Shown: piece by piece, positions 2,943 to 49,720 of the stretch | Position numbering within the stretch: the first letter of the stretch is position 1 | Layout of the letters: every line of letters begins with the position of its first letter | Source: a virus | Lineage: Duplodnaviria > Heunggongvirae > Uroviricota > Caudoviricetes | Virus record (IMG/VR): IMGVR_UViG_2737471835_000006 | Strand: one strand, 5' to 3' | Length of the DNA: 53,176 nt | The notes under the pieces: generated by a model | What the model saw: the letters and a program-made list of their open reading frames with translations, nothing else | Told to the model about the DNA's origin: nothing | The model's database searches: none | Made by a program: the position numbers and the translations under genes

Positions 2943-4579
2943 CCCGCCGCCGCTGGTTTATCAAACATTGCACCACGGTTGTACGAACTCGCAACTTGTC
3001 TCAGCCCGTCGAGCACACCCGATGCAGCAGCCTGCTGTGTTGATTGTGGATCTGCCGCTCCGATAATATTGATTTCAATTTTATTGTTTTGCTCTGGCGC
3101 TGGAGTTGCGACTGCCTGTCTCAGCGCGTCAATATTCAACGTTGCTGAGTTTTGTGATTCAGGCGTTGAGTCTTTATTTATTAATCCAGTAAACGGGTTA
3201 GCAAACGAGAGCATTGATTCAGCCTGTGATTTTGCACGAGCAAGACGTTCAGGGTGCCGCATATTATCGACGGCTTCGTCGGCTTTTGCTTTTGCTACAT
3301 TATCTGCTGCCAGTCCTGGGTTCGGTGAATATTTACCACCACTATCCATGAATTCCTGATACGCTTTATTATATTCTTCGTTATATACGCGCTGTTCCTC
3401 GTCTGTTTTCTCGTCTGGTATTAACCACTCCAGTTTTTTTACGACTGCCCAAATTATTTTTCCGAATTTAACGCACGCCTCGCCAAAACTGACTATCCCC
3501 TCCCACATTTTTTTCATATTTTCTGGCTTAACCCATTCTTTAATACTATCAACAACCCCCCCTTGATTCTCTTTAAACCAGGATGCCAGCCCGTCTCGCA
3601 TAGCGTCAAACGTCGGCGCGAGTTCCCCTCCGATTTTCCCGAGAGTATCTGCCAGCCCCGATGTGATTGCCCCCCACAGATTCGTGACGGATACGTGCGC
3701 GCGCGCTGCACCCTCAGCCCCTTCTTTCGTTAGCAGGTTTGATTTTTGAGCGTCCGACAGAGTCTGCTCCCAGCTTTTACCAGTCGCCCGCATATAAGTC
3801 ATTATTTTATTAGCTTCCCCCCCCATGAGCTGATCAGCCAGACTCGCCGCCTGTTGATCATCCTTCATTTCAGAGATACGCCGCATAACTTCATTGAACT
3901 GTTTTTCTCGATCCCATTTAGCCATCCGTTTTTTTGTCAGGCCAATTTGAAACAACATGGGGTTCAGGTTTTTTTCGTTTCCAACCTCCCCGATTTTATT
4001 AGTCAACTCCTCCGACAGATCTCCTACGTTTTCGCCATTCAGCCCTGCAGCTTTACCAATATTTTCCCACGCAGCGTATTTTTCGATGCCAACACCGTAG
4101 GACTTCGCCAGACCGAGTTTTTCTGACGTCTCTGCATTCATTGCCAACGCGCCAGCAGCCGCGCCGCCGAGCAGACCCACGGCCCCCAGCGTCCCCCATT
4201 TGATACCCCGTCCCGTGGCCCTCACCGCACCTGCGGCGGCTCGCCCTCCCCATTTTGCAGCACCTTTTGCGCGCCCCGTCCACTTCTCCAGCCGCTGTTT
4301 TTTGGCGAGCTGAGTATTCAGAGCTTCCTGGTCCTGTGTTGTCGCTTTTATCCGACGGTCCAGCTTTTGATACTGAGCAGATAAATCAGAAACGTCTTTA
4401 CCCGCCAGTTTCATTGCTGCGATTTTGTCTTTTAATTTATCCTGGCTTTTCGTTAATTTTCCGACAGTAGACGACGTCTGCCGAATTGCATCGTTGAGTT
4501 CTGTTGTACCGCGCCGAAACGACGGGTCTATTCTCCCCCCAAATACAACCTGCGTTTTAAAGTTTTGAGAAATAGCCAT
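2939..4579 (-). CDS. Tail tape measure protein
   Basis: 546 aa; coiled-coil N-terminal region, Gly/Ala-rich putative membrane segment (GTLGAVGLLGGAAAGALA), position between tail chaperone and gpU. Confidence 0.7.
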   Translation of the reverse strand: MAISQNFKTQVVFGGRIDPSFRRGTTELNDAIRQTSSTVGKLTKSQDKLKDKIAAMKLAGKDVSDLSAQYQKLDRRIKATTQDQEALNTQLAKKQRLEKWTGRAKGAAKWGGRAAAGAVRATGRGIKWGTLGAVGLLGGAAAGALAMNAETSEKLGLAKSYGVGIEKYAAWENIGKAAGLNGENVGDLSEELTNKIGEVGNEKNLNPMLFQIGLTKKRMAKWDREKQFNEVMRRISEMKDDQQAASLADQLMGGEANKIMTYMRATGKSWEQTLSDAQKSNLLTKEGAEGAARAHVSVTNLWGAITSGLADTLGKIGGELAPTFDAMRDGLASWFKENQGGVVDSIKEWVKPENMKKMWEGIVSFGEACVKFGKIIWAVVKKLEWLIPDEKTDEEQRVYNEEYNKAYQEFMDSGGKYSPNPGLAADNVAKAKADEAVDNMRHPERLARAKSQAESMLSFANPFTGLINKDSTPESQNSATLNIDALRQAVATPAPEQNNKIEINIIGAADPQSTQQAAASGVLDGLRQVASSYNRGAMFDKPAAAG

Positions 4580-4687
4580 CGGTTTTCATGACCTCGTTTA
4601 CATAGAAATTAAAAACCCGATACGGCAGGTCCATTTGCGTATCGGGCGGGATGGCAAGTTTTTTCGCAATAAACGGAATCAGAATTA

Positions 4688-5511: not shown

Positions 5512-7005
5512 TCAGGCTGTTTCTTTAAAAAGGGAGGCCAGTGCCTCAACTGTATAGTCATTATTAATACAGTACATTAACGTAATTGTTTGTGCCGGAG
5601 ATTTCGGACCAAAATCAACATTAATATAAAGATTGCCAGCGGCCAGACTTTCTTTTGTATTCAGCTCACCGTCTAACCACGCACGCCCTCCGTTAATCGC
5701 ACCCTGCTCCTCTAATTTGTGCAGATATGCGTTTATCGACTCGACAACGTCTGTTCCGAGATGCAGGTCTATCGGGCGATCAATAAAATCTGTCATCATT
5801 GCCCGGGCTATAGAATCTTCAATTACGTCAGCTGTCCGACGAACGCATTCAAACGACCATTGTGGATCCAGACTGCACAGATAGTTACCCCAGTGCCGGA
5901 ATCCATCGTAGCGAATAATGGTGCTGACCTGGCTGGCGTTCAGTAGGTTCGCTGTGCAGTTTGTCTCACCAATAATAAAATCGTCGATTTGTTCAAGCCC
6001 TGTTATTCCATAAATATTTTGATTCGACTTACTCCACCAAAACCCTTTTTCATTATCAATTCTGGCTCGTAAACCAGCGGCGATAGCTGAATATGGACGC
6101 GACAGATCACTGAGATCGCCAGCTGAAAACACACGCGGGCGTAGTATTTCCATGCGCGCGCTATATTTATGGCGGCGGTTAACGACGTCTGCGGGCGATG
6201 CCGTGCGTGGAGAATCAATATAGCCGACTCCACGTAATTTATTTGTGACTACCTCCAGCGCGGCAGCGACGTCGTCATTAGCACTGTAATCAGGTGCAAT
6301 CAAAATTCGTGGAGTCACCTGGTTTATCTGTCCCGATGTTAACATAGCGTTAATGCCGTTGATTACGTTCTCACGCTCTTTTGTCGCGTCTGTGTTTTCG
6401 TCTACGCGAACAACAACAATTAGCGCATCTGTCTGATTTAAAATATCAGTGATGGCTGCGGGGAGAGTGCCTGCTGCACCCAGGAGCGCCGCTTTTTTCT
6501 GACTACCTGCAATTAGTGTGGGTATGTTGACTGGAAATGGAGCGTCAGAACCGCCCGTCAGGCTCGTGACGGGCATCTGATAAACAATTCCATCATTTTT
6601 ACTGGCCTCATCCAACGCTACAAAAATATAATCCTCCGCGTTCCGTCCCTCATTGTGAGTCAGAACGTCTTGTGACAGCACCTCTGGCGTTGTTGTACTA
6701 TCTGTTCCGAGCGTTAATTTTATTGTCCCGTCCGGTAACGTGCTATATCCGTATTTAATTCCAGAAATGCCCTTCTTAATAATTTCAACTGCAAATTTAT
6801 TTCCGTAACTCCCTGAATAAACCGGGAGAAATGTCACCACATTATCTGACAAGGGTGACCCCCATGTTAATGAAGCTCTTCCTCCCAGCCCAACATCCGG
6901 TGCAGTACCAACAATCCCGATAACCGAAATATCTACCGCGCTGATCTCTTTTGTGCCGTCGTCGTATTCAAGCGTGCGGGGGCCGTGCAAAAAATTAGTG
7001 CTCAT
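5512..7005 (-). CDS. Contractile tail sheath protein (P2 FI-like)
   Basis: 497 aa; size, composition and position upstream of the tube gene typical of myovirus sheath proteins. Confidence 0.8.
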   Translation of the reverse strand: MSTNFLHGPRTLEYDDGTKEISAVDISVIGIVGTAPDVGLGGRASLTWGSPLSDNVVTFLPVYSGSYGNKFAVEIIKKGISGIKYGYSTLPDGTIKLTLGTDSTTTPEVLSQDVLTHNEGRNAEDYIFVALDEASKNDGIVYQMPVTSLTGGSDAPFPVNIPTLIAGSQKKAALLGAAGTLPAAITDILNQTDALIVVVRVDENTDATKERENVINGINAMLTSGQINQVTPRILIAPDYSANDDVAAALEVVTNKLRGVGYIDSPRTASPADVVNRRHKYSARMEILRPRVFSAGDLSDLSRPYSAIAAGLRARIDNEKGFWWSKSNQNIYGITGLEQIDDFIIGETNCTANLLNASQVSTIIRYDGFRHWGNYLCSLDPQWSFECVRRTADVIEDSIARAMMTDFIDRPIDLHLGTDVVESINAYLHKLEEQGAINGGRAWLDGELNTKESLAAGNLYINVDFGPKSPAQTITLMYCINNDYTVEALASLFKETA

Positions 7006-12182: not shown

Positions 12183-12213
12183 GGTTCCCCCTTAAGTGGG
12201 ACCGCGGTCCCAC

Positions 12214-12594
12214 TTAGTATTTTGAATACTCGCTGTTTTCGCTGGACGTGTGAGGCTCTAAAAAAATATTCGTGAGACCGATGCCATCCGGTTGAGGCTC
12301 TTTAACCACGTAATCGGTCCAGTCAGACCAGGTAACAGAGCCGTCAGCAGCGATACTGCGCTGCTTTGGGACCTGGACAACGTCACGCGCAACAACGCCA
12401 GCGACGTCGTCTGAAAGCGCTGTCAGGCTCGTTACTGTACCGGTAATAAAACCAGCGTGAGGAACGTCAACGCGCGCGTAAGGCTCGTTGAAAATAGCGA
12501 TAATAGGGTCGGTTTTACCGCGTAATTTAACGGGCCATCCCCACTCACGGATCATCTCCTCGTCGCCAGCCCGGAGGTCATCGTAGTAGCTCAT
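12214..12594 (-). CDS. Head-tail connector protein (lambda FII position)
   Basis: 126 aa directly after the FI-like gene with 4-nt overlap. Confidence 0.5.
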   Translation of the reverse strand: MSYYDDLRAGDEEMIREWGWPVKLRGKTDPIIAIFNEPYARVDVPHAGFITGTVTSLTALSDDVAGVVARDVVQVPKQRSIAADGSVTWSDWTDYVVKEPQPDGIGLTNIFLEPHTSSENSEYSKY

Positions 12595-12998: not shown

Positions 12999-13028
12999 GT
13001 TGATTCCTTAAAAAGAGCCTTTCGGCTC

Positions 13029-14063
13029 TTACGCGATTTTTACGACGACGAATGCATCAGCGTCCGTGAGCACCATTGCTGGCGCGGATTGAGTCATTGT
13101 CTGCGTCACTGCCGGATCACCGGTCGTCGTCCAGACTTTTGGATAGCGCGTGGCCTCGCAGATCCCCTCTTTCAGCGCGTCTTCGTCCTGAATCGCGCCA
13201 TACGTGCGGAGTCCGCGATTTTTTGTGTTGCCCAGGATCATCGTGTTATCCGGCATATAACGCGTTTCAATGCCTGTTACAGGGTCAATATATTGCCCCT
13301 TGTAAACGAACAGCGCCGTGTCGCCGTAATAGCCCTTAAAGCTAACGACATCGCCCAGGTTTTTCAGCGCGACTTCGAGCTGGCTGTTTGAGCCACGGCG
13401 CGTATCCAGTGCCGTCCAGAATTTTTTAAAGCGCTTCAACTGCTTCCAGGCTTTACCGTCCATGATGATCACGTTAACAGCACCGGAGGCGAGGTCTGCA
13501 TAGGATTCGATATCGTCGCTCGGGTCATACGTTTCCGCGTCCTGAGTAGACCAGGCTGTCGAACCGGACTGAGTGACGTTATTCGTCGCGCTGCGGCTCA
13601 TATCGATCTCATAGGTCTCGATATTGCTGCCGGAGACTGTGTATTTACCGTACAGAACCGCCTGCACTGCCTGGAACTCTTCGAGCTGACTGATGCTGAG
13701 TTCCTCGTCGAGCAGGTTCTGCATGATGATTTTTGCACGACGTTCGACCGGCGTTTCCGGCTGACCAATTTGCTCACCGGCGGCGCGCTTAATGCTCATA
13801 TTCGGATTGATCGTGTGTTTCGGCTTCGTGTAACCCGGTTTGAAATAGTTCGTTGAATAGCCGCGAGTGCGGTCAACTTTGCCGGTGATCATCGGCGCGC
13901 AATATACCGCCATATTGACTTTGCCCGGGATTTTATCCAGAAAAACCTCTTCGCTCGTAAACGTGTAGGTCTCACGGAAAAACAATCTTAAAAACAACGG
14001 ATTGAACTTAAATACCTGCTGCGTTGCGGTAATCAGTTCTGACGTAGTAAACGAATCGCTCAT
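13029..14063 (-). CDS. Major capsid protein, lambda gpE family
   Basis: 344 aa; FKFNPLFLRLFFRETYTF, GNTKNRGLRTYGAIQD and TTGDPA blocks match lambda gpE closely. Confidence 0.9.
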   Translation of the reverse strand: MSDSFTTSELITATQQVFKFNPLFLRLFFRETYTFTSEEVFLDKIPGKVNMAVYCAPMITGKVDRTRGYSTNYFKPGYTKPKHTINPNMSIKRAAGEQIGQPETPVERRAKIIMQNLLDEELSISQLEEFQAVQAVLYGKYTVSGSNIETYEIDMSRSATNNVTQSGSTAWSTQDAETYDPSDDIESYADLASGAVNVIIMDGKAWKQLKRFKKFWTALDTRRGSNSQLEVALKNLGDVVSFKGYYGDTALFVYKGQYIDPVTGIETRYMPDNTMILGNTKNRGLRTYGAIQDEDALKEGICEATRYPKVWTTTGDPAVTQTMTQSAPAMVLTDADAFVVVKIA

Positions 14064-14083
14064 TTATATATCCTGTATAAAAA

Positions 14084-14120
14084 AACCGCCCGGAGGCGGC
14101 TTGTTTTGAGTTTTTTTTTT
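14084..14120. terminator. GC hairpin (CCGCC-CGGA-GGCGG) flanked by an A-run and a T10 run
   Basis: Read directly: aaaaaccgcccggaggcggcttgttttgagtttttttttt; lies between the decoration and capsid genes. Confidence 0.4.
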
Positions 14121-14124
14121 GCTA

Positions 14125-14454
14125 TCAGCCAACGCTGACTGGCGTACCAGCAAACGCTGATTTGCGTTTAGCGACGTCAGTAACCGTACCCCAGTTAATC
14201 GCCGTATAACGAAACGATCCTGATTTGTAGTACGAGCAGTCTGCAGAACTGGAGCCTGTATTAACTGCTGTGGCTGTGAGACCAACCGCCTTACCAATTG
14301 AGCCGTCCCAGACTTTAAACGTCCCGGCAGTAGCGTCGAGCATAATCGGTGTCAGCCGGGGTACGTTGATCCCGCCCTGAAAATGACCGACGGTCGTCAC
14401 AACAAGATCGGGTCCCAGAATAAAATCATCCGGGCTATACGTTTCTGTGGTCAT
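14125..14454 (-). CDS. Head decoration protein, lambda gpD family
   Basis: 109 aa; PIMLDATAGTFKVWDG and KRKSAFAGTPVSV match lambda gpD. Confidence 0.85.
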   Translation of the reverse strand: MTTETYSPDDFILGPDLVVTTVGHFQGGINVPRLTPIMLDATAGTFKVWDGSIGKAVGLTATAVNTGSSSADCSYYKSGSFRYTAINWGTVTDVAKRKSAFAGTPVSVG

Positions 14455-15764
14455 TATTCATCCCCTAAAATTGAACGCCCTGCCGCGACCAGCATCGAGA
14501 CGTTTGCGGTTGTTCCTGTTGCCGTGGTGCTGCCGGCATCCTGAATAGTTTCCGGTGATTCAGTGCTCATGAGTGTATCGAGCGCCGTTTCTGTCCGCGC
14601 CTGCGCTGTTTGCGGTGCTGCCGCGAGGACAGCCTGCGCCTGCCCGACCGTCATCCCGGGGACGGCAGCGAGCGCTTTTGCCTGCGCCTCGCGCCCAACA
14701 GCTTCGGGACAGTTGATGATGGCCATCACGCGTGCCAGTTCGCTCGATGCGGCGTCCGCGCGAATCTGCTCCGCGTTGGACTCAACCGGCGCGACCGTAG
14801 TCGTAGCCGCGGTTTGTTCTGTGGTCGTGGTCTCCGCCGTGGTTTCTGTTGTACCTGGCATAAATCGCTCCGTTTTTGGTTTCAGTGCGTCGGCCATCAC
14901 TGCGATAGCGTCCGCGTAATTAACGAGTTGATCAGCGAGACCAGATTTAATCGCGTCCGCGCCGATAAATACTGCGGCCTCTGTGGCCAGCACCCTGGAT
15001 TTTTTCAGCCCGGTATAATCCGAGACTTTTTGCGCGAACTGCTCGCGTGTGCTGTTAATACTCAGCTGGAATTCGTCGCGAACGTCGTCGGGCAGCTGGG
15101 AATACGGGTTCCCGTCGACTTTGTGCGCGCCGGCGTAAATCAGCGTCACGTCAACGCCGGCAATCTCCAGCGCCTTTTCGACGCAGCGGTGAGCCATCAG
15201 GACACCGATTGAACCAACCGTGCCGGTCTGCGTTATCAGCCGGCGCGAACACGCTGACGCCAGCAAATATGCGGCGCTGCAGGCCGTATCGCTGGCCAGC
15301 GCCCACACCGGTTTTTGCTCTCGCGCCCGGGCGATTAAATCAGCGGTATCAAACGCGCCGGCGACCTCACCGCCAGGGGAATCAATATCCAGCAGGATCC
15401 CCTTAACATCGGGATCAGAAATCGCCTGCTGCAGGCGTTTTGCGATTCCGTCGTAACCACTCATCCCGCTGACCGGATTGATATAACCCAATTTATGAAC
15501 CAGCGTCCCGGTAACCGGCAGAACGGCTATACCACGCTCCACGCGATACGATTTCTGGCGTGTTCGCTCGCTGCTGTCCCACCCCATCGCGAGCGCGTTC
15601 ATTTCGTCGCTGTTCATTACCTCTCCTGACGCTGTATCAATCAGTCGCCCGGTACCGAACCGGTCGCTCAGCGCAGAAAAAAATACCCGCGCGTAGGCGG
15701 GCTCCAGCAAAAGCGGTTGATTGAACGCCCTAGCGGCGAGGTGCGGAAAATTGTTCCACGGCAT
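14454..15764 (-). CDS. Head maturation protease / scaffold, lambda gpC (S49 peptidase) family
   Basis: 436 aa; SppA-type peptidase core with Ala/Thr-rich C-terminal scaffold-like region; directly after portal. Confidence 0.85.
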   Translation of the reverse strand: MPWNNFPHLAARAFNQPLLLEPAYARVFFSALSDRFGTGRLIDTASGEVMNSDEMNALAMGWDSSERTRQKSYRVERGIAVLPVTGTLVHKLGYINPVSGMSGYDGIAKRLQQAISDPDVKGILLDIDSPGGEVAGAFDTADLIARAREQKPVWALASDTACSAAYLLASACSRRLITQTGTVGSIGVLMAHRCVEKALEIAGVDVTLIYAGAHKVDGNPYSQLPDDVRDEFQLSINSTREQFAQKVSDYTGLKKSRVLATEAAVFIGADAIKSGLADQLVNYADAIAVMADALKPKTERFMPGTTETTAETTTTEQTAATTTVAPVESNAEQIRADAASSELARVMAIINCPEAVGREAQAKALAAVPGMTVGQAQAVLAAAPQTAQARTETALDTLMSTESPETIQDAGSTTATGTTANVSMLVAAGRSILGDE

Positions 15765-17335
15765 CAGTTACCTCCCCAGCCGTTATCGTTGGTATTTGAG
15801 GGGTGAGATACTGACCAGGATGGTTCGCTCAGCTCCATTTCGCGCCGGCGCTGAATTTCGTATTCCTGTTGTTCCATGACCTCCTCGTAGTCCTGCCCCT
15901 GCAGCGCGAGTTCGTTCTGATACGTGCTGAGGCCAGTCGTGATGCGCATGGCGCTCTCCTGAACCTCTTTCAGCCCATCAATCGCCATGCGACCAGCGCC
16001 GATCCAGAGCGCGTTCGTCCAGGAGTTCCGCGCTTCATAAAACGACCGGACCGCTGAGCGTGGCAGGGTGATAACTCCGCGCGCCAGAGCTTCCTCAAAC
16101 CAGCAGCAGAACATCAGTGACGCCTGTCGTGCGGCGATAAAACGTCGACGGCCCATGAAAAAACGCCAGCTCACGTTTGCGCTGGCCCGCGCGCTGGAGT
16201 AACTGACCTGGCTGTAGTCCCGACTCAGTTCCTCATATGACGCGCCGACGCCAGCGGCAACGTAACGCAGGAGTGATTTTTCCAGCGAACTGAAACCAGC
16301 ATCAGCATTCTGAGCGGTCTGTAAACTGAGTTTGTCGCCGGGATGCAGGTGGGGAACTTTCACACCACCGAGCTTGATATTTGCGCCGTTGTAGTACGTC
16401 ACGTAACTCTGAATAAACGAACTCAGCGGGTTCGAGTCGATATCAGTACCCGCGCCGGCGATATATTCAAACGCCTGCTGGCTGTCGAGCTCTGATTCGA
16501 TTGTGGCGGCGTACATCGCCTTCACGATGGCGCTCTGCAGCTGTGTTTGCTGCAGCGTATCGAGCATTTTCAGCCGCTCCATTACGCTGTAAAAAATGTT
16601 ATCTCCGCGGGTTTGTCCGTCCTCGAGCGGCTCGAATATGTGAATGAATGCGTGTCTGCCGCTGCTGAGTTTTGCTGGTATGCGCCGGCATTTACCAACT
16701 CCGCCGAGGGGATAGGTATCCTCGGCTATCCAGTACCCAACCGCGGCCCCGTTTTTATCGATATCAACACCGGCGCGGCGAAATTGAGTGTCAGCTGCGT
16801 AGCCAGGATTTCGAATTCGTTTCGGTGAGACCATTTTGAATCGCGTCCGAAAAACGCTGCCGGCGCAGCTCTCCCACACCGGTTGTACGCAGGTTTCACC
16901 GTTGAACGCGTGAGTGGCCACGCCTTCGCGAATCATCATTGTGAACGTCCGTTTCCGCTCGATATCAATCGTGCAGTGAGGGTCCTCGGCGTATTCAGTC
17001 CACGCGACCTCAACGTCACGCGCCAGCGCCCTGGCGTCCTCGCGAGATATCCCGATGTAACGCCAGTTAGGGCGATAACTCAACTTAAACAGATTGCCGA
17101 CGATATGATCCTGATGCAGCTGCACGGCGTTCGACGCGACGCCGTTATTACGAACGAGATCGTCTGCTCGCGCGTTACCGCGATAAAAATTAGGCAGCAG
17201 TGCCGCATCGGCGCTTTGCTGTGGTGCATTCCAGTCAATCAGCTGGCCACCGAAGCCGGGACCGCCGCCGTTATACCCCGCGTAACGGCGTAGTGGCGTT
17301 TTACCGTCAGGCCCGAGCAACTGCTGAGCAGTCAT
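15764..17335 (-). CDS. Portal protein, lambda gpB family
   Basis: 523 aa; long collinear blocks with lambda gpB (LLPNFYRGNARADDLVRNNG, KRTFTMMIREGV, YSVMERLKMLDTLQ, IDGLKEVQE). Confidence 0.9.
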   Translation of the reverse strand: MTAQQLLGPDGKTPLRRYAGYNGGGPGFGGQLIDWNAPQQSADAALLPNFYRGNARADDLVRNNGVASNAVQLHQDHIVGNLFKLSYRPNWRYIGISREDARALARDVEVAWTEYAEDPHCTIDIERKRTFTMMIREGVATHAFNGETCVQPVWESCAGSVFRTRFKMVSPKRIRNPGYAADTQFRRAGVDIDKNGAAVGYWIAEDTYPLGGVGKCRRIPAKLSSGRHAFIHIFEPLEDGQTRGDNIFYSVMERLKMLDTLQQTQLQSAIVKAMYAATIESELDSQQAFEYIAGAGTDIDSNPLSSFIQSYVTYYNGANIKLGGVKVPHLHPGDKLSLQTAQNADAGFSSLEKSLLRYVAAGVGASYEELSRDYSQVSYSSARASANVSWRFFMGRRRFIAARQASLMFCCWFEEALARGVITLPRSAVRSFYEARNSWTNALWIGAGRMAIDGLKEVQESAMRITTGLSTYQNELALQGQDYEEVMEQQEYEIQRRREMELSEPSWSVSHPSNTNDNGWGGN

Positions 17336-19526: not shown

Positions 19527-19980
19527 TCAGGGCTATCGCCAGCTCCTCTCGTAAAACACTGCTCGCCTCCTGCGGCATTTCAGGCCACACCTTTTTCAAC
19601 CGTGGTGGCCACGATTCGACACGGGTACGTAATTCAACTGCGACGCGAGATACAGCGACGCTGATTAATTCAATTGGCGCGTAGCGTTTAGCAAGAATGC
19701 GGCGTTTCACGCGAGCCATCAGGATTCGCTCCTGTCGTTCCTCATTTTTCAGCCACTGCTCGCGATTTTTTTCGGGAGAATTGTCCCCCACTTCCGGTTC
19801 GTCAGTACCAACTGTGTCGCGTCTATTACTCCGGAGATAATGAATATAGAAATGGCGCCAGGCGTCTAGCTCCCAATCACCACGTCCTTGTGGGACTGGT
19901 GCTCCCGGAAGTTTTGCGAGATCGCGCAGACGACGATCTGATAGCAGTAAATGTGCTGCGACCTCAGCCTGACTTGCCAT
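19414..19980 (-). CDS. Terminase small subunit (Nu1-position, N-terminal HTH)
   Basis: 188 aa immediately upstream of and overlapping the large subunit; N-terminal helix-turn-helix-like segment, acidic C-terminus. Confidence 0.55.
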   Translation of the reverse strand: MASQAEVAAHLLLSDRRLRDLAKLPGAPVPQGRGDWELDAWRHFYIHYLRSNRRDTVGTDEPEVGDNSPEKNREQWLKNEERQERILMARVKRRILAKRYAPIELISVAVSRVAVELRTRVESWPPRLKKVWPEMPQEASSVLREELAIALNELADIRVDFSDYDVSDIERDLDRVESLARDDTDDGG

Positions 19981-20352
19981 TAAAAATCCTCACCGGAACC
20001 GGAAATACATAAAATGAAAAAATACTAAAAATGAGTGAGTTTTTGCGCGTCTACCGACCCTCGGTGTTTTGAATTTCGGAAAGGACCCGCGACCAGGGGG
20101 GCTATATCCCTTTCAGGACAGGAATCGGGGGCTCGCATCAGGTTCATCAAACTCGACTGTAGCCTCGCGGCGTACTTGTTTGCATACATCAGCTTTGTGT
20201 ATCTCATTATCAGCGTAAGCTTTCACTTTGGCAGCGAGCCATCCTTTTGCGCTGTATCGATAGACTACCGAACAAAGTTTTCCCTATGTGTATATATCTT
20301 GAAATTATTGATATTCTTACAGAAAAGCAACAACCATGAGCACACAAAAAAA

Positions 20353-20598
20353 ATGAACAAAGAAAAAATCGAAGCCTTAATGAGCGTAATATTAAAAGAA
20401 GCTGACCCCAAAAAATTTCCTGAGAAGTTATCAGAGGACGCCATCGTATCTTTTTATCGTGCGAACTCCTCTTACCTACATTGTCCAACTTTAAGAGAAT
20501 GGTTAAGCGGCGAAGCAGAGCCTTCAGATGAGATACTTGAGGAGATTATGATTCAGAACAACTGGCGTGCAACTAAATGGTCAAATCGGTTACCTTAA
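20353..20598 (+). CDS. Hypothetical small protein (moron-like, AT-rich)
   Basis: 81 aa from the internal ATG of the 187-aa six-frame ORF (an upstream ATG is followed by an in-frame stop); followed by a hairpin terminator. Confidence 0.3.
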   Translation: MNKEKIEALMSVILKEADPKKFPEKLSEDAIVSFYRANSSYLHCPTLREWLSGEAEPSDEILEEIMIQNNWRATKWSNRLP

Positions 20599-20612
20599 CC
20601 TGTTGAATGTGT

Positions 20613-20645
20613 GCCGCCTTAAAACAAAAAGGCGGCCTCTCGTTT
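20613..20645 (+). terminator. Rho-independent terminator candidate
   Basis: 8-bp stem GCCGCCTT/AAGGCGGC with 8-nt loop, followed by a moderately T-rich tract. Confidence 0.45.
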
Positions 20646-20866
20646 AAGTAAAGCGTCTCTTTCATCAGCCACCAGCTCTTTGGCACATTGCGCAGTTGTT
20701 TTTTATACGTCGGCGAGCTGTTGCGAAGCTCAGTCCCTGCGCGTCACACCATTCTTTCGGTGATACACATGATTTGACGTACTCGGACAGGAATCGCTTC
20801 TGAAGCTCAAGCCCAGTCCCGGTTAGCTCATGTAATTAAATCCTACTGTATTCTCATGGTGCCCAG

Positions 20867-21208
20867 ATGTCGTCTATGCTTTTAACTCGAACATTCAATG
20901 AAGAGAAATGCTCTATGGTTATTGGTATGCAGGAATCAAAAAATTGCCCTGTATGCGGCTCTGATGCCACATGGACAAATCACGATACGTGCTGGAAAAT
21001 TCATTGCAGTGGTTTTTGCGGTGATTTTTTAATCACAACCATTACGATAAATTATCTGAAGGGCGATGCACTAAGGCGTCTTGATGCCATCGATCTATTA
21101 AAAGAGCCAACAACACTCAAGACACCTTTAACAAACAAAATCCTTGCTGAATATGCACGTACAAAACATCCCGTGCACATCTTTGAAGGTCACTATCCGG
21201 GCTATTAG
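20867..21208 (+). CDS. Hypothetical Cys-rich protein
   Basis: 113 aa with CPVCGS ... HCSGFCGD spacing suggestive of a zinc-binding fold; no SD seen. Confidence 0.3.
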   Translation: MSSMLLTRTFNEEKCSMVIGMQESKNCPVCGSDATWTNHDTCWKIHCSGFCGDFLITTITINYLKGDALRRLDAIDLLKEPTTLKTPLTNKILAEYARTKHPVHIFEGHYPGY

Positions 21209-21483
21209 TCAGTGCTAGTAACTTTCGAAATAGGAGAAATTTTAGATGTGTGATAATTCATCTCGTCGATAGTCTGAGGAATTAACTCACTCGCGCCATT
21301 TGCAACTGCAACGCGATAATGCGGTCCATTCCATCGACTAAAATCGGAGCGTTCATAAATTACTACCTCATCCCCCACAGAAACCCTTAACTCCGTGCTA
21401 CCTACGGGTTCAATAGCGGAATTAGAATAAATGTCTTCAACACGACCGTGAAAAGGCCCACCAACGAACAAAAACTGTGACAT
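21205..21483 (-). CDS. Hypothetical protein
   Basis: 92 aa ORF downstream of the lysis cassette; no motif recognised. Confidence 0.3.
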   Translation of the reverse strand: MSQFLFVGGPFHGRVEDIYSNSAIEPVGSTELRVSVGDEVVIYERSDFSRWNGPHYRVAVANGASELIPQTIDEMNYHTSKISPISKVTSTD

Positions 21484-21621
21484 ATAATTTCCTATTAAAA
21501 AATACCCAGTTAAATCGGCATTTAAAAATATGTCATATTTATGATTCTGTCTTTAGCACCTTTGTGTGGTCAGGTTGCCTGGGCCAAATGACCAATCGTC
21601 AATTCATTAAGATAAATTACC

Positions 21622-21816
21622 CTATTTTCCAACGGGGCATGAAGCCACTGCCCCGGTTGAATCAATACAACCACCGTTCGCTGTTGTAATCTTCGTACCC
21701 GGCGCGATCGTCACGTGTTTAATACTGCTGTCGTCAGCGCGAGTCGCTTCGGTGTATGTCGAATGTGTGCAGCCTGCCAGCGTGAAGAACGCGACAGCTA
21801 AGAGAAGTTTTTTCAC
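21622..21816 (-). CDS. Small lipoprotein at the end of the lysis cassette (Rz1/Bor position)
   Basis: 64 aa; signal peptide with lipobox LAGC; immediately downstream of the endolysin gene. Confidence 0.5.
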   Translation of the reverse strand: MKKLLLAVAFFTLAGCTHSTYTEATRADDSSIKHVTIAPGTKITTANGGCIDSTGAVASCPVGK

Positions 21817-21823
21817 GTTTTAC

Positions 21824-22303
21824 CTACGCTTCTGAGATAGATTTCTCAGCATTCACGAATGGAAGTGATTGTGGAACATCAGTTTGGCCTGCTGGCCAGC
21901 GGTAGCCTGTTACGCGGGAACGAGGAAAAGCTTTGATATTTACTTCATCTGCCTGGTTACCACCCAAAATCATTAAATCCCCGGCGGCATTTTTCCCGAC
22001 AACAAAGCCAACGTGACCACCGCCAGACCGAGACAGAATAGCAATGCATCCATAGGCGGGTTCCTTCAGTTCATTACCCCAATCGAGATAAGAATTCGCA
22101 GACTCAAAACGCGTTGAGCGAATACCTACACGTTCCAGCATTGCTCCGGTGAAGGCAGCGCACCACGGGGTTTCATCATCCTTAATGCCGCCGCGTTTGA
22201 TATCTTTCCAGTACTGCACAATTTCTGCAGCATGTTGCTTCCCTTTCATTTCCCGAATGCCGAGATTTTTTCGTGCCTCAATTAGCCATTTAGGATCGGT
22301 CAT
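21824..22303 (-). CDS. Endolysin, NlpC/P60-CHAP-like cell-wall peptidase
   Basis: 159 aa; Cys-His catalytic pair in DETPWCAAF ... GGGHVGFVVG typical of phage peptidase-type endolysins; overlaps the upstream membrane gene by 14 nt. Confidence 0.7.
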   Translation of the reverse strand: MTDPKWLIEARKNLGIREMKGKQHAAEIVQYWKDIKRGGIKDDETPWCAAFTGAMLERVGIRSTRFESANSYLDWGNELKEPAYGCIAILSRSGGGHVGFVVGKNAAGDLMILGGNQADEVNIKAFPRSRVTGYRWPAGQTDVPQSLPFVNAEKSISEA

Positions 22304-22965: not shown

Positions 22966-23066
22966 CTGATTCAGAAACGACAAAACCCCGCCGTGGCGAG
23001 GTTCTTAGAAATTTGGCAACATACCAAATTAGCGTTTAATATGGCCTGTTTTGTTCGGTTTTGCAA
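22966..23066 (-). promoter_or_regulatory. Putative late promoter pR' with downstream tR' terminator (Q antitermination target)
   Basis: Minus strand: TTGCAA, 17-18 nt, CATATT/ATATTA just after the Q stop, then hairpin CCUCGCC-ACG-GCGGGG followed by UUUUGUCGUUU immediately before the holin start. Confidence 0.4.
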
Positions 23067-23069
23067 GCA

Positions 23070-23741
23070 TTATACGCAAACGTCGTCTAAATGGTTTTGA
23101 TAATGATGCAAAGTTGCAAGAAGTGCCATTTCATCAAGTGCTCTCACCGCCTCTTTCATTCCTACCCAGTGCGGGGAGTATGTTTCGCACCAGGTGGAAC
23201 GAGAAACAGACAACATTCCAGCTAGCGCAGATCCAGCCATCTCCTTAAAATCCTCGCGTTTATTTGCTGCTGCAACCGCCTGCACGGACAACCACACCAA
23301 CGAAAGCAGACGCTTAGCTACTTTTCTCTGAGTTGACGCGGGGATGTGTCCTTTATAGCGACTCCAGACAGCCTCACAAATAGCTGTTTGGTGTTTGAAC
23401 GCCAGGTGACCACCGTAGCAATAGCGCAACCACGCCTGCTGGCTAACGTCGAGCGAATTCACGGCGCGGCGCCACGATGAATCAGCGAATTCATAATCAT
23501 TCATCGGCGGCGCGGGACGACGTCTGCTGAAACTTTCCAGGGCATAAACTGGCGTAACCAGAGCATCAACGGTCCGGTCCTCCAGTTGCACACGATGAAT
23601 ATGTTTGCGTGGGTATGCGTTTTTATCTGCTGGCGGGTGCTCACACAATGCTTCCAGTTGCCCCTTAGAACCACCAGACAAATCCCGTAATGCAGCGCGC
23701 AGTTTTATGCGGGTATATTCCAATAAATACTCGTTACTCAT
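23070..23741 (-). CDS. Late-gene antiterminator, Q family
   Basis: 223 aa; position directly upstream of the late promoter and lysis genes; composition typical of the long Q-type antiterminators. Confidence 0.6.
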   Translation of the reverse strand: MSNEYLLEYTRIKLRAALRDLSGGSKGQLEALCEHPPADKNAYPRKHIHRVQLEDRTVDALVTPVYALESFSRRRPAPPMNDYEFADSSWRRAVNSLDVSQQAWLRYCYGGHLAFKHQTAICEAVWSRYKGHIPASTQRKVAKRLLSLVWLSVQAVAAANKREDFKEMAGSALAGMLSVSRSTWCETYSPHWVGMKEAVRALDEMALLATLHHYQNHLDDVCV

Positions 23742-31374: not shown

Positions 31375-32169
31375 TCAAAATGCTGAATCAGCAACGGATA
31401 CAACCGACTTTTTCCCCATTACCATCAATTTATCCAGCGTCATACTTCGCAGGTTGTCGCTGTGGATCACCAGATACCCTGCCCGCTCAGCGATCTCTTT
31501 GAAAGCGTCAAACGTCATCAGATGTTCGCCTTTGGCAACATGGCGCATCCTGGTCACTTTTCCATTTTTGATAGTGGTGATAAAAGAAAAATCTGGAATG
31601 GTTGGCTGATTTTCATCGAGTAGCAGGCAGTGGATGTATTCAATCGCCTCTAACATTTGCGTCTGTGACAGTTGTTCTATGTGAGAGACGGCGAAGCGTT
31701 GATGAATCATGGTGTAGGCATCGGGATACATCATGCCTTTCTTACCGACCAGCATATTAACGGCATCACGTAAGGGAGTACGGTCATCGGTAGTTGTACT
31801 CCGCCTCTCTGGACGCTGTCTAAAATAACAATCTTCCAGCTTTTCGAAAACTTCCCAGGCCTGTTCTGTTTCCAGCATTTTGGCATGGCGAGCTGCGCCG
31901 CATTCTGTCCAGAGGATGAGAGAGCGGACATTTCTGGCGATTTTCACAGGAGGTCTTAAAGACATGCTGTGCTTAAATTCGCGCAACTCCTCACCTTCGA
32001 GCAAAAAGTAATGCTTCCCGACCACGAATCGCTCTGAGTTCCGGTTATGGTTTTTACGAATGTAATCCGGCTCTGTGCCATAGAGGTTCGCGAGTAATTC
32101 GGTGGTGAGGACGGGAAGTTGGTTGTGGATAATCGGGGAGATGGCTGCTGCGGATACTTGAGTTGTCAT
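31375..32169 (-). CDS. Phage antirepressor-like protein (ORF6N-type N-terminal domain)
   Basis: 264 aa; N-terminal LLANLYGTEPDYIRKNHNRNSERFVVGKHYFLLEGEELREFK resembles the ORF6N domain. Confidence 0.55.
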   Translation of the reverse strand: MTTQVSAAAISPIIHNQLPVLTTELLANLYGTEPDYIRKNHNRNSERFVVGKHYFLLEGEELREFKHSMSLRPPVKIARNVRSLILWTECGAARHAKMLETEQAWEVFEKLEDCYFRQRPERRSTTTDDRTPLRDAVNMLVGKKGMMYPDAYTMIHQRFAVSHIEQLSQTQMLEAIEYIHCLLLDENQPTIPDFSFITTIKNGKVTRMRHVAKGEHLMTFDAFKEIAERAGYLVIHSDNLRSMTLDKLMVMGKKSVVSVADSAF

Positions 32170-32441
32170 AGCGATTTCCTTTTAGTCGGATAATCACCCC
32201 CCTCAGGTGCAAATCTTTGGGTGGTGAGACATGCAGGGTTTGCACTACCGGCTAAAAGGACCCGGCGAGCCTTTCGACTCCCCTACACGCCCCACCATAA
32301 ATCGCGGATGTGGCTGTGCGCACGACAATAAAAAAGACGCTGGCGCGTCGTTGTCGCCTTTTAGATATCCGGGGTGCAAATCCCGGCAACCGATTTTGCG
32401 GCTGCGCGGAAACTATAGCCCCGGGCTTTTTCTAAGTCAAT

Positions 32442-49135: not shown

Positions 49136-49720
49136 TTACATTGTGTCTGGTTCTTCCGGCCACTCAATATCAGGTGCAGTTGTTGTATTAACACGGTTCA
49201 GCAACACCCGATACTTCTTCCAGGCTTCCAGCAACGAGGTTTCTTCCTCCGTTGCAATTTCCAGATCTGCAGCATCCTGAAGCGGCGCAATATGCTCACT
49301 GGCTACCTGCATCAGGCTGTTTTTTGTTTCTTCCGCCTCCCGGATCCGGAACAGTTTTTCTGCTTCTGCATCTTTCACCCAGGCTGTGCCGTTCCACTTC
49401 TGATATTCCCCTCCCGGCGACAACCAGGTAACATTTTCCGGTAACGGACCGAGTTCAGAAATAAATAACGCGTCGCCGGAAGCCACGTCATAAACCGTTT
49501 TACCCCGATGGTCTTCAACGAGATGCCACGATGCCTCATCACTGTTGAAAACAGCCACAAAGCCAGCAGGAATATCTGGTGGTGCAATATCGGTACTGTT
49601 TGCTGGCAGACCTGTATGAGGCGGAATATATGCGTCACCTTCACCAATAAATTCATTAGTCCCGACCAGCAGATTATAAATTTTTATGGTCCGTGGTTGT
49701 TCACTCATTCTGAATGCCAT
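49136..49720 (-). CDS. tfa: Tail fiber assembly protein, lambda Tfa
   Basis: 194 aa, near-identical over its length to lambda Tfa as recalled ([18 protein letters not shown] ... [51 protein letters not shown]). Confidence 0.85.

Follow-up and report, generated by a model that had tools for sequence, protein, structure and literature searches.

Intrinsic terminators lying inside antiterminated phage operons, and hairpins flanking capsid genes, are well-known kinds of element. The operons of lambdoid phages that contain tR' and other internal terminators are expressed through read-through by N- or Q-modified RNA polymerase, and Q controls their late transcription through antitermination at tR' (PMC7547250). 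The terminator tL2a also yields an Hfq-bound sRNA (LPR1; bioRxiv 10.1101/2024.10.31.621285). The element described here is a hairpin in the gap between the homologues of the lambda head genes D (decoration) and E (major capsid), and it shares with tR', tL2a and the terminators flanking lom the form of an intrinsic terminator embedded in an antiterminated operon. However, tR' is a regulatory switch beside a promoter, unlike the D-E element, and neither a regulatory decision nor an sRNA, as in tR' and tL2a, is known for the latter. A parallel in position comes from phiX174, where the J-F and F-G gaps hold intrinsic terminators at which only 20-40% of transcription ends (bioRxiv 10.1101/2020.03.05.979765). 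These terminators, T_J and T_F, are Rho-independent, lie just before and just after the major capsid gene in a polycistronic transcript, and are mostly read through. The read-through in phiX174 nevertheless stems from their intrinsic weakness (20-40% efficiency), with no antiterminator, and both the virus and its capsid fold are unrelated.

A further class is that of intercistronic stabiliser hairpins, such as the malE-malF REP and the hairpins of the Rhodobacter puf operon, which are proposed to block 3'-5' exonucleases after endonucleolytic cleavage. Like the D-E hairpin, they are stable stem-loops 3' of a highly expressed operon cistron. They need no U-tract, whereas the D-E hairpin has a canonical U7, and REPs are dispersed repeats while the D-E hairpin is single-copy.

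A lambda-type late operon in an Escherichia coli prophage

The window analysed here, the whole stretch of 53,176 nt of IMG/VR record IMGVR_UViG_2737471835_000006 (Caudoviricetes), is an E. coli prophage, and the 2.8 kb that surround the D-E gap are 100% identical to several E. coli chromosomes, and this flanking region is found in 448 of 5,426 complete E. coli genomes. The late genes lie on the minus strand throughout, with the following features.

Minus strand, late gene order: Q, two holins, endolysin, terminase, gpW, portal, protease, D, E, FI, FII-like, P2-type contractile tail
22982-23741, minus strand: late-control region (Q gene, TATAAT, tR'-like hairpin), upstream of the holin gene
23070-23741, minus strand: Q antiterminator gene (PF06323, E=1.5e-38; RefSeq 'antitermination protein Q')
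23005-22982, minus strand: tR'-like hairpin, AGAACCUCGCC ACGG CGGGGUUUU (pattern scan and sequence)
15764-17335, minus strand: portal gene
14454-15764, minus strand: S49 protease gene (lambda C)
14125-14454, minus strand: head decoration gene, lambda D homologue, 109 aa (PF02924, E=6.7e-8)
13029-14063, minus strand: major capsid gene, lambda E homologue, 344 aa (PF03864, E=6.6e-59)

The preliminary description of this DNA had placed the hairpin between a decoration and a capsid gene, and the matches to PF02924 and PF03864 bear this out. The decoration gene is annotated as 'head decoration protein' by RefSeq in an identical prophage and its product has 36% identity to lambda D, while the capsid protein has 57% identity to lambda E. 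The decoration reading frame ends in UGA (14127-14125, minus strand), followed by an in-frame UAG (14124-14122).

Upstream, a TATAAT near 23070, at the end of the Q gene, is a putative late promoter, and the tR'-like hairpin at 23005-22982 carries the U-rich tail UUUUGUCGUUU. Judged by its motifs, the succession of Q, TATAAT and hairpin before the first holin gene is the lambdoid pR'/tR' layout. The window has the parts of a Q-antiterminated late operon, namely a Q gene, a promoter and a proximal terminator on one strand, and the holin, endolysin, terminase, portal and following genes all lie on this strand downstream of the Q unit. The putative promoter and the tR'-like terminator (22982-23075) would together yield a leader RNA of approximately 60-70 nt, comparable to the lambda 6S or StxS RNAs.

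The region separating the lysis cassette from the terminase genes (19980-21824) contains plus-strand ORFs opposing the late operon, and late transcription must cross this antisense insert. One of these ORFs (20867-21208) has a weak match to Lar restriction alleviation proteins, below the cut-off (25.3 bits against 28.6), and the insert also holds a plus-strand terminator-like hairpin at 20613-20636.

Three RNA families were matched elsewhere in the window. An isrK Hfq-binding RNA (32330-32405, minus strand, 76 bits) and a C4 antisense RNA (32217-32302, minus strand, 74 bits) both exceed their Rfam gathering scores and adjoin a gene encoding an ORF6N-domain, antirepressor-like protein (31375-32169). 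This region resembles the c4-ant immunity modules of the P1/P7 type, such as that of Gifsy-1. The third match, to the IS009 RNA family (49179-49377, minus strand), is full length with 227 bits and lies in the host-flanking part of the window.

Architecture and folding of the D-E hairpin

The D-E gap extends over 14064-14124 on the minus strand and measures 61 nt, the length given by the preliminary description. Its sense RNA has the organisation A10-CUCAAAAC-hairpin (AAGCCGCC UCCG GGCGGUUU)-UUUU-AUAC-AGGA-N7-AUG. Written out with the D stop codon, it runs UGA UAG C A10 CUC AAAAC, hairpin, UUUU AUAC AGGA UAUAUAA AUG. Its parts are listed below.

14103-14124, minus strand: spacer from the D stop to the hairpin, 22 nt, holding the A10 (14120-14111); variable in relatives
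14102-14095, minus strand: 5' arm of the hairpin, AAGCCGCC
14094-14091, minus strand: loop, UCCG
14090-14083, minus strand: 3' arm of the hairpin, GGCGGUUU
14085-14079, minus strand: U7 tract, directly 3' of the GGCGG core
14061-14078, minus strand: capsid translation initiation region, AUAC-AGGA-UAUAUAA-AUG (Shine-Dalgarno AGGA 14074-14071; AUG 14063-14061)

The stem (14102-14083) has 8 pairs, of which five are G-C, one G-U and two A-U, closed by a 4-nt loop, and the first three U of the U7 can pair with the AAG at the base of the stem. A pattern scan returned the hairpin among its terminator-like sites on the minus strand (8 pairs, 5 of them GC, and a loop of 4 nt). It has the form of an intrinsic (Rho-independent) terminator, for which the stem is expected to have about 5-14 bp and the loop 3-8 nt, since there is a GC-rich stem-loop on the transcribed strand and a U-run directly 3' of the stem. 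It also has the placement of an intercistronic mRNA-stabilising hairpin, in that a stem-loop stands just past a highly expressed cistron; it begins 22 nt past the D stop, and a second hairpin overlaps the E stop. The terminator-like GC hairpin that had been proposed for this gap is hence present on the minus strand, both in the scan and in the fold. The interval initially assigned to it (14084-14120) covers the GC core and the A10 and cuts off most of the U-tract. Similarly, the A10 and T-run said to flank it both exist, but this symmetry is specific to the lineage and the A10 is not conserved (see below).

The isolated 29-nt hairpin folds with -13.8 kcal/mol (z = -2.8), and 2 of 200 shuffled sequences were as stable. 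The centroid structure of the region contains no other element and leaves the capsid ribosome binding site unpaired; the capsid initiation region is AU-rich and predicted to be unstructured. Taken with its 81-nt context, the sequence is no more stable than its shuffles (z = -0.9), and 14 kb of the window contain 25 terminator-like sites against 16 +/- 3.7 in shuffled sequences. Judged within the window alone, the hairpin thus stands only modestly above chance. No family of Rfam 15 reaches its gathering score at the hairpin; the best matches are sub-threshold (at most 29 bits for thresholds of 41-75) and are to sRNAs and leader peptides ending in terminators. RefSeq has no annotation in the D-E gap of E. 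coli prophages.

The equivalent hairpin in phage lambda

According to the preliminary description, lambda transcribes this junction without interruption. That premise is wrong, because the lambda D-E gap holds the same kind of hairpin followed by U7. The lambda gap has 55 nt, and its hairpin, AAAGGCCGC CUGU GCGGCUUUUUUU plus U7, is found at about 6098-6125 of NC_001416, in the arrangement ...CACU AAAGGCCGC CUGU GCGGCUUUUUUU ACGGGAUUUUUUU AUG. It has 9 pairs and a U-tract, ends approximately 19 nt before the E start, and in its 76-nt context gives z = -3.1.

The two elements share their position, after the decoration gene and with approximately 19 nt between the end of the stem and the capsid AUG, and their design, a GC stem with a 4-nt loop and U7. 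They also have the GCCGCC of the 5' arm in common, and in lambda, as in the window, the late transcript is Q-antiterminated. They differ by a pairing register that is one base off (GCCGCC/GGCGG in the window, GGCCGC/GCGGC in lambda) and by the spacer on the D side, which in lambda is unrelated to that of the window and has no A10. Going by sequence and position, the closest relative of the window hairpin is this positionally equivalent hairpin in lambda.

From nu1 to L, the only gaps of lambda longer than 15 nt are D|E and E|FI, and each contains one hairpin. Further terminator-like hairpins of the lambda late operon lie in the I|J, J|lom and lom|stf gaps. The D-E hairpin is annotated in neither lambda record (J02459 and NC_001416), and we found no description of it in the full-text literature searched.

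Conservation among loci encoding E homologues

The strong evidence for the D-E hairpin is comparative, and comes from aligned sequences and predicted folds. Our comparative set comprises 138 loci with E homologues, drawn from viral contigs and from contigs of one genome per species, which reduce to 61 distinct upstream sequences and to 23 clusters at 85% identity. These loci were gathered with an alignment as query, whereas a single-sequence query returned near-identical prophages only. A hairpin of -7 kcal/mol or better with a T-run, within 80 nt before E, is present in 21 of the 23 clusters, compared with 0.066 per 80 nt as the background rate of these strands; this enrichment is descriptive and carries no independent-trials probability, because the clusters share ancestry. 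The identity of E to the query across the loci with the element goes from 100% down to 32%. A run of T6-T8 occupies the position of the U-tract in 20 of the 23 clusters. Of the 21 with a hairpin, 19 have 18-23 nt between stem and AUG, while the spacer towards the D stop varies freely in length and sequence.

The stems themselves are diverse: GCCGCC/GGCGG, GGCCGC/GCGGC(C), GGCCAC/GUGGCC, GGGUCGC/GCGGCCC, GGCUGCC/GGCGGCC, GAGCC/GGCUC and GGGCGCC/GGCGCCC. A structure-anchored table of 27 distinct hairpins contains 9 inner helices and 22 loops. Its inner five pairs are paired in all 135 of 135 cells, compared with 92 +/- 7 when the 3' arms are shuffled among sequences (2,000 trials, maximum 116), a result that is supportive but no unbiased test, because the table is anchored on predicted structures and the pairing arises partly by construction. 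The changes that keep pairing include a two-sided one, from GCCGC/GCGGC to GCCAC/GUGGC, and a one-sided one, from GCCGC/GCGGC to GUCGC/GCGGC (C-G to U-G). A covariation count on a MAFFT alignment was abandoned, as registers one base apart and unequal loop lengths misaligned the columns.

Closer to the window, the stem is invariant, the loop is UCCG or UACG, and the block from the ribosome binding site to the AUG is nearly invariant. The A10, on the other hand, is not conserved, being replaced by A6, A7, A8 or CCCAAAG in relatives whose E is 96-99% identical, and the first 8 nt of the gap are unalignable in most E. coli relatives. In 427 E. coli genomes the stretch from the hairpin to the AUG is 98% identical, whereas the flanking 2.8 kb are 90-95% identical, which points to purifying selection. 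The element occurs in 451 of the 5426 E. coli genomes, with a median of one copy and always at this prophage locus; it does not behave as a dispersed repeat of the REP/BIME type.

We counted 91 terminator-like matches on the sense strand of the loci and 54 on the antisense strand. The sense excess is largely explained by three conserved sites, and gives no sign of a general enrichment.

Some loci of the set (L023, L025-L039 and L065-L093) have E genes 57% identical to the query, the same value as lambda E, on contigs assigned to unrelated taxa (Pseudoxanthomonas, Bradyrhizobium, Paenibacillus, Kitasatospora, an Akkermansia MAG and others). Where these contigs reach the D-E gap, it is lambda-like, and many of them are short and of low coverage. 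The E genes at these loci are most likely lambda DNA contaminating the assemblies.

Companion hairpins in the head gene cluster

Two other terminator-like hairpins of the window lie close to head gene boundaries.

13010-13030, minus strand: second hairpin, (UA)AGAGCC GAAA GGCUCUU UUU (-10.9 kcal/mol)
15676-15702, minus strand: third hairpin, (G)CCCGC CUACGC GCGGG(U) AUUUUUUU (pattern scan and fold)

The second has a GNRA loop and overlaps the E stop codon, and is followed by the FI Shine-Dalgarno and AUG (12998). A hairpin of -8 kcal/mol or better within 80 nt past the E stop exists in all 23 clusters, and a post-E hairpin is also found in Chi, AH2, Salvo, K242 and PCAh2. The third lies within the 5' end of the S49 protease gene, approximately 60 nt past the portal stop. 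Lambda has it at 4487-4510 of NC_001416, and the common form is CCCGC CUAYGC GCGGG with a U-rich run. The synonymous sites of its stem codons are frozen across 18 of 18 clusters (CCC in 17, GCC in 18, GCG in 18 and CGG in 17), whereas several synonymous codons are in use at the loop codon and at conserved residues nearby. In the single deviant cluster (L064), CCC has become CCU and CGG has become CAG (Arg to Gln), a compensatory pair. The frozen codons and the compensatory change point to selection on a nucleic-acid structure, hairpin plus U-run, within a coding region. Since no start codon stands behind this structure, such selection weakens the idea that the U-tract serves only the translation of E.

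Two more hairpins were seen further along the late operon. At 12193-12216 (minus strand), a 10-bp hairpin, UAAGUGGGAC CGCG GUCCCACUUA, begins at the stop codon of the FII-like gene, has no U-tract and precedes a GGGGG Shine-Dalgarno and a GUG start; it folds with -16.7 to -17 kcal/mol, and none of 200 shuffles was as stable. At 4615-4647 (minus strand), a hairpin of -17.1 kcal/mol, GCCCGAUACG...CGUAUCGGGU then UUUUAAUUU, lies in the 108 nt that separate the tail-chaperone ORF from the tape-measure gene, the place where phages with P2-type tails usually encode a frameshift-extended chaperone.

Exceptions and association with Q

The D-E element is dispensable, because several lineages do without all or part of it. 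The ev017 lineage (L054/55/60) has a Q-like gene and keeps a strong hairpin that no longer has a U-tract, the hairpin before E is absent from one locus (L056), and in Aeromonas phage PCAh2 the D and E genes overlap and a strong terminator follows E. At the other end, Vibrio phage K242 (33% E identity), which encodes a Q-like protein, has a hairpin and U6 before E, and an alphaproteobacterial locus (32% E identity) has a hairpin and a U-run at the same place. GC hairpins lacking U-tracts occur in Chi, Burkholderia AH2, Xylella Salvo and Serratia BZS1, either in the D-E gap or past the E gene, and no Q was found among the features retrieved for these four phages, which cover the head region only. 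Across seven genomes, the lambda-like phages and K242 have both Q and the U-tract, whereas ev017 has Q and no U-tract. This trend is suggestive only, given the seven genomes and the ev017 counterexample, of full terminators being tolerated inside late operons with antitermination.

Alternative explanations

The hairpin and U-tract might instead be part of the capsid translation initiation region, their likeness to a terminator being incidental. The stem would lock up a GC-rich sequence and insulate the ribosome binding site from upstream coding RNA, and the U-rich strand next to a weak Shine-Dalgarno would be an S1-binding enhancer for the most heavily translated head gene. This main rival explanation, which we consider unlikely, accounts for the constant spacing between stem and AUG (18-23 nt in 19 of 21 clusters) when the distance to the D stop varies widely, for a hairpin-to-AUG block far more conserved than the D-side spacer, and for a capsid ribosome binding site left unpaired in the centroid fold. 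It also fits the short Shine-Dalgarno (AGGA in the window, GGGA in lambda), and lineages that have lost the U-tract have longer ones (AAAGGA or AGAGG). However, conservation of the same architecture extends to the inside of the protease gene, with no start codon behind it, and the architecture recurs after E, before a gene of low abundance; Vibrio K242 keeps hairpin and U6 despite a strong Shine-Dalgarno (GGAG) 12 nt further on, and a maximally compact gap, passed on as one block, may be all that the fixed spacing reflects. The terminator could also be leaky even for Q-modified polymerase, creating a step-down between the upstream head genes and E with all that lies downstream. Hairpins do stand on both sides of E in the window, and phiX174 provides a precedent with terminators flanking its capsid gene F (bioRxiv 10.1101/2020.03.05.979765). 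Q-modified polymerase is nevertheless highly resistant to terminators, which speaks against such a leak. Lambda heads contain about equal numbers of E and D, roughly 400 copies each. A step-down before E is made less likely by this need for E in about the same abundance as D, far above that for the upstream portal and protease, and we regard it as very unlikely.

Read from the other strand, the A10 is a T10, and the element could be a bidirectional terminator whose main job is to stop plus-strand antisense transcription. The pattern scan does find a plus-strand core, CCGCC CGGA GGCGG then CTTGTTTTGAGTTTTTTTTTT, but the T-run is 11 nt away from the stem on that strand, no plus-strand gene or promoter-like site converges on the gap, and the A-run changes even among relatives with 96-99% identical E and is absent from lambda. 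For want of a conserved A-run we rejected this explanation, whose probability we put as extremely low. Hardly credible at all is a functionless element, be it a chance or neutral palindrome or a dispersed REP-type repeat. Terminator-like matches are common enough (25 in 14 kb where 16 are expected), and the 81-nt context (z = -0.9) is no more stable than shuffles, which would fit chance. Against this, the hairpin recurs at the same position across loci with 32-100% E identity and with compensatory changes, and the D-E gap is better conserved than the adjacent coding DNA. A REP-type repeat was rejected, as the element is single-copy in each genome, always inside the prophage, and matches no Rfam family.

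Proposed role

The explanation we favour, with about even confidence, is that the D-E hairpin is a selectively maintained element of the intrinsic-terminator type, read through by Q-modified polymerase, that would act as a fail-safe, as an mRNA stabiliser, or as both. Its architecture, its conservation with compensatory changes and the Q-type unit upstream are established by the sequences. By analogy with established lambdoid late-transcription behaviour, polymerase modified by Q would be expected to read through it (PMC7547250). The roles put forward in the preliminary description, insulation from non-antiterminated transcription or RNA stability, remain the leading candidates.

During lytic growth, polymerase modified by Q at the late promoter would ignore the hairpin, and D and E would be co-transcribed. 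Polymerase lacking the modification, which might come from leak-through at the tR'-like terminator in the lysogen or from internal or spurious promoters, would stop at the hairpin. In read-through RNA, cleavage in the AU-rich stretch could leave the stem-loop as the 3' end of the protease-D segment and so shield this segment from 3'-5' exonucleases; AU-rich single-stranded RNA is of the kind that RNase E prefers. The three hairpins would then be punctuation marks after the portal, decoration and capsid cistrons. Each of the two roles meets a difficulty. A fail-safe would have no obvious pay-off, because the lysis and terminase genes lie upstream and cannot be protected by the hairpin. Sampson et al. 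(PNAS 1988) reportedly found mRNA levels and half-lives to be roughly the same throughout the lambda late operon, which would argue against strong segmental stabilisation.

Significance for lambda-type phages

These results indicate that the D-E hairpin is a normal feature of lambda-type head gene clusters and no peculiarity of this prophage. Lambda itself carries, in its late operon, at least three terminator-like hairpins under strong conservation: one lies inside C, one in the D-E gap and one after E. The lambda records annotate none of them, and the searchable literature explains none. A bolder possibility, which we hold to be decidedly unlikely, is that the three co-conserved hairpins carve the late transcript of more than 20 kb into sub-mRNAs of defined stability, or release Hfq-binding 3'-end RNAs, in the manner of tL2a and LPR1. 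The accepted view is that translation initiation alone sets the ratios of lambda late proteins. If true, the bolder possibility would amount to a layer of late-gene control never assigned in lambda.

The D-E gap is often modified in lambda D/E display and packaging vectors, and a role of the hairpin would, if true, be relevant to their engineering. Should these hairpins act as fail-safes or influence how late mRNA is processed, the textbook view of one uninterrupted late transcript would be refined.
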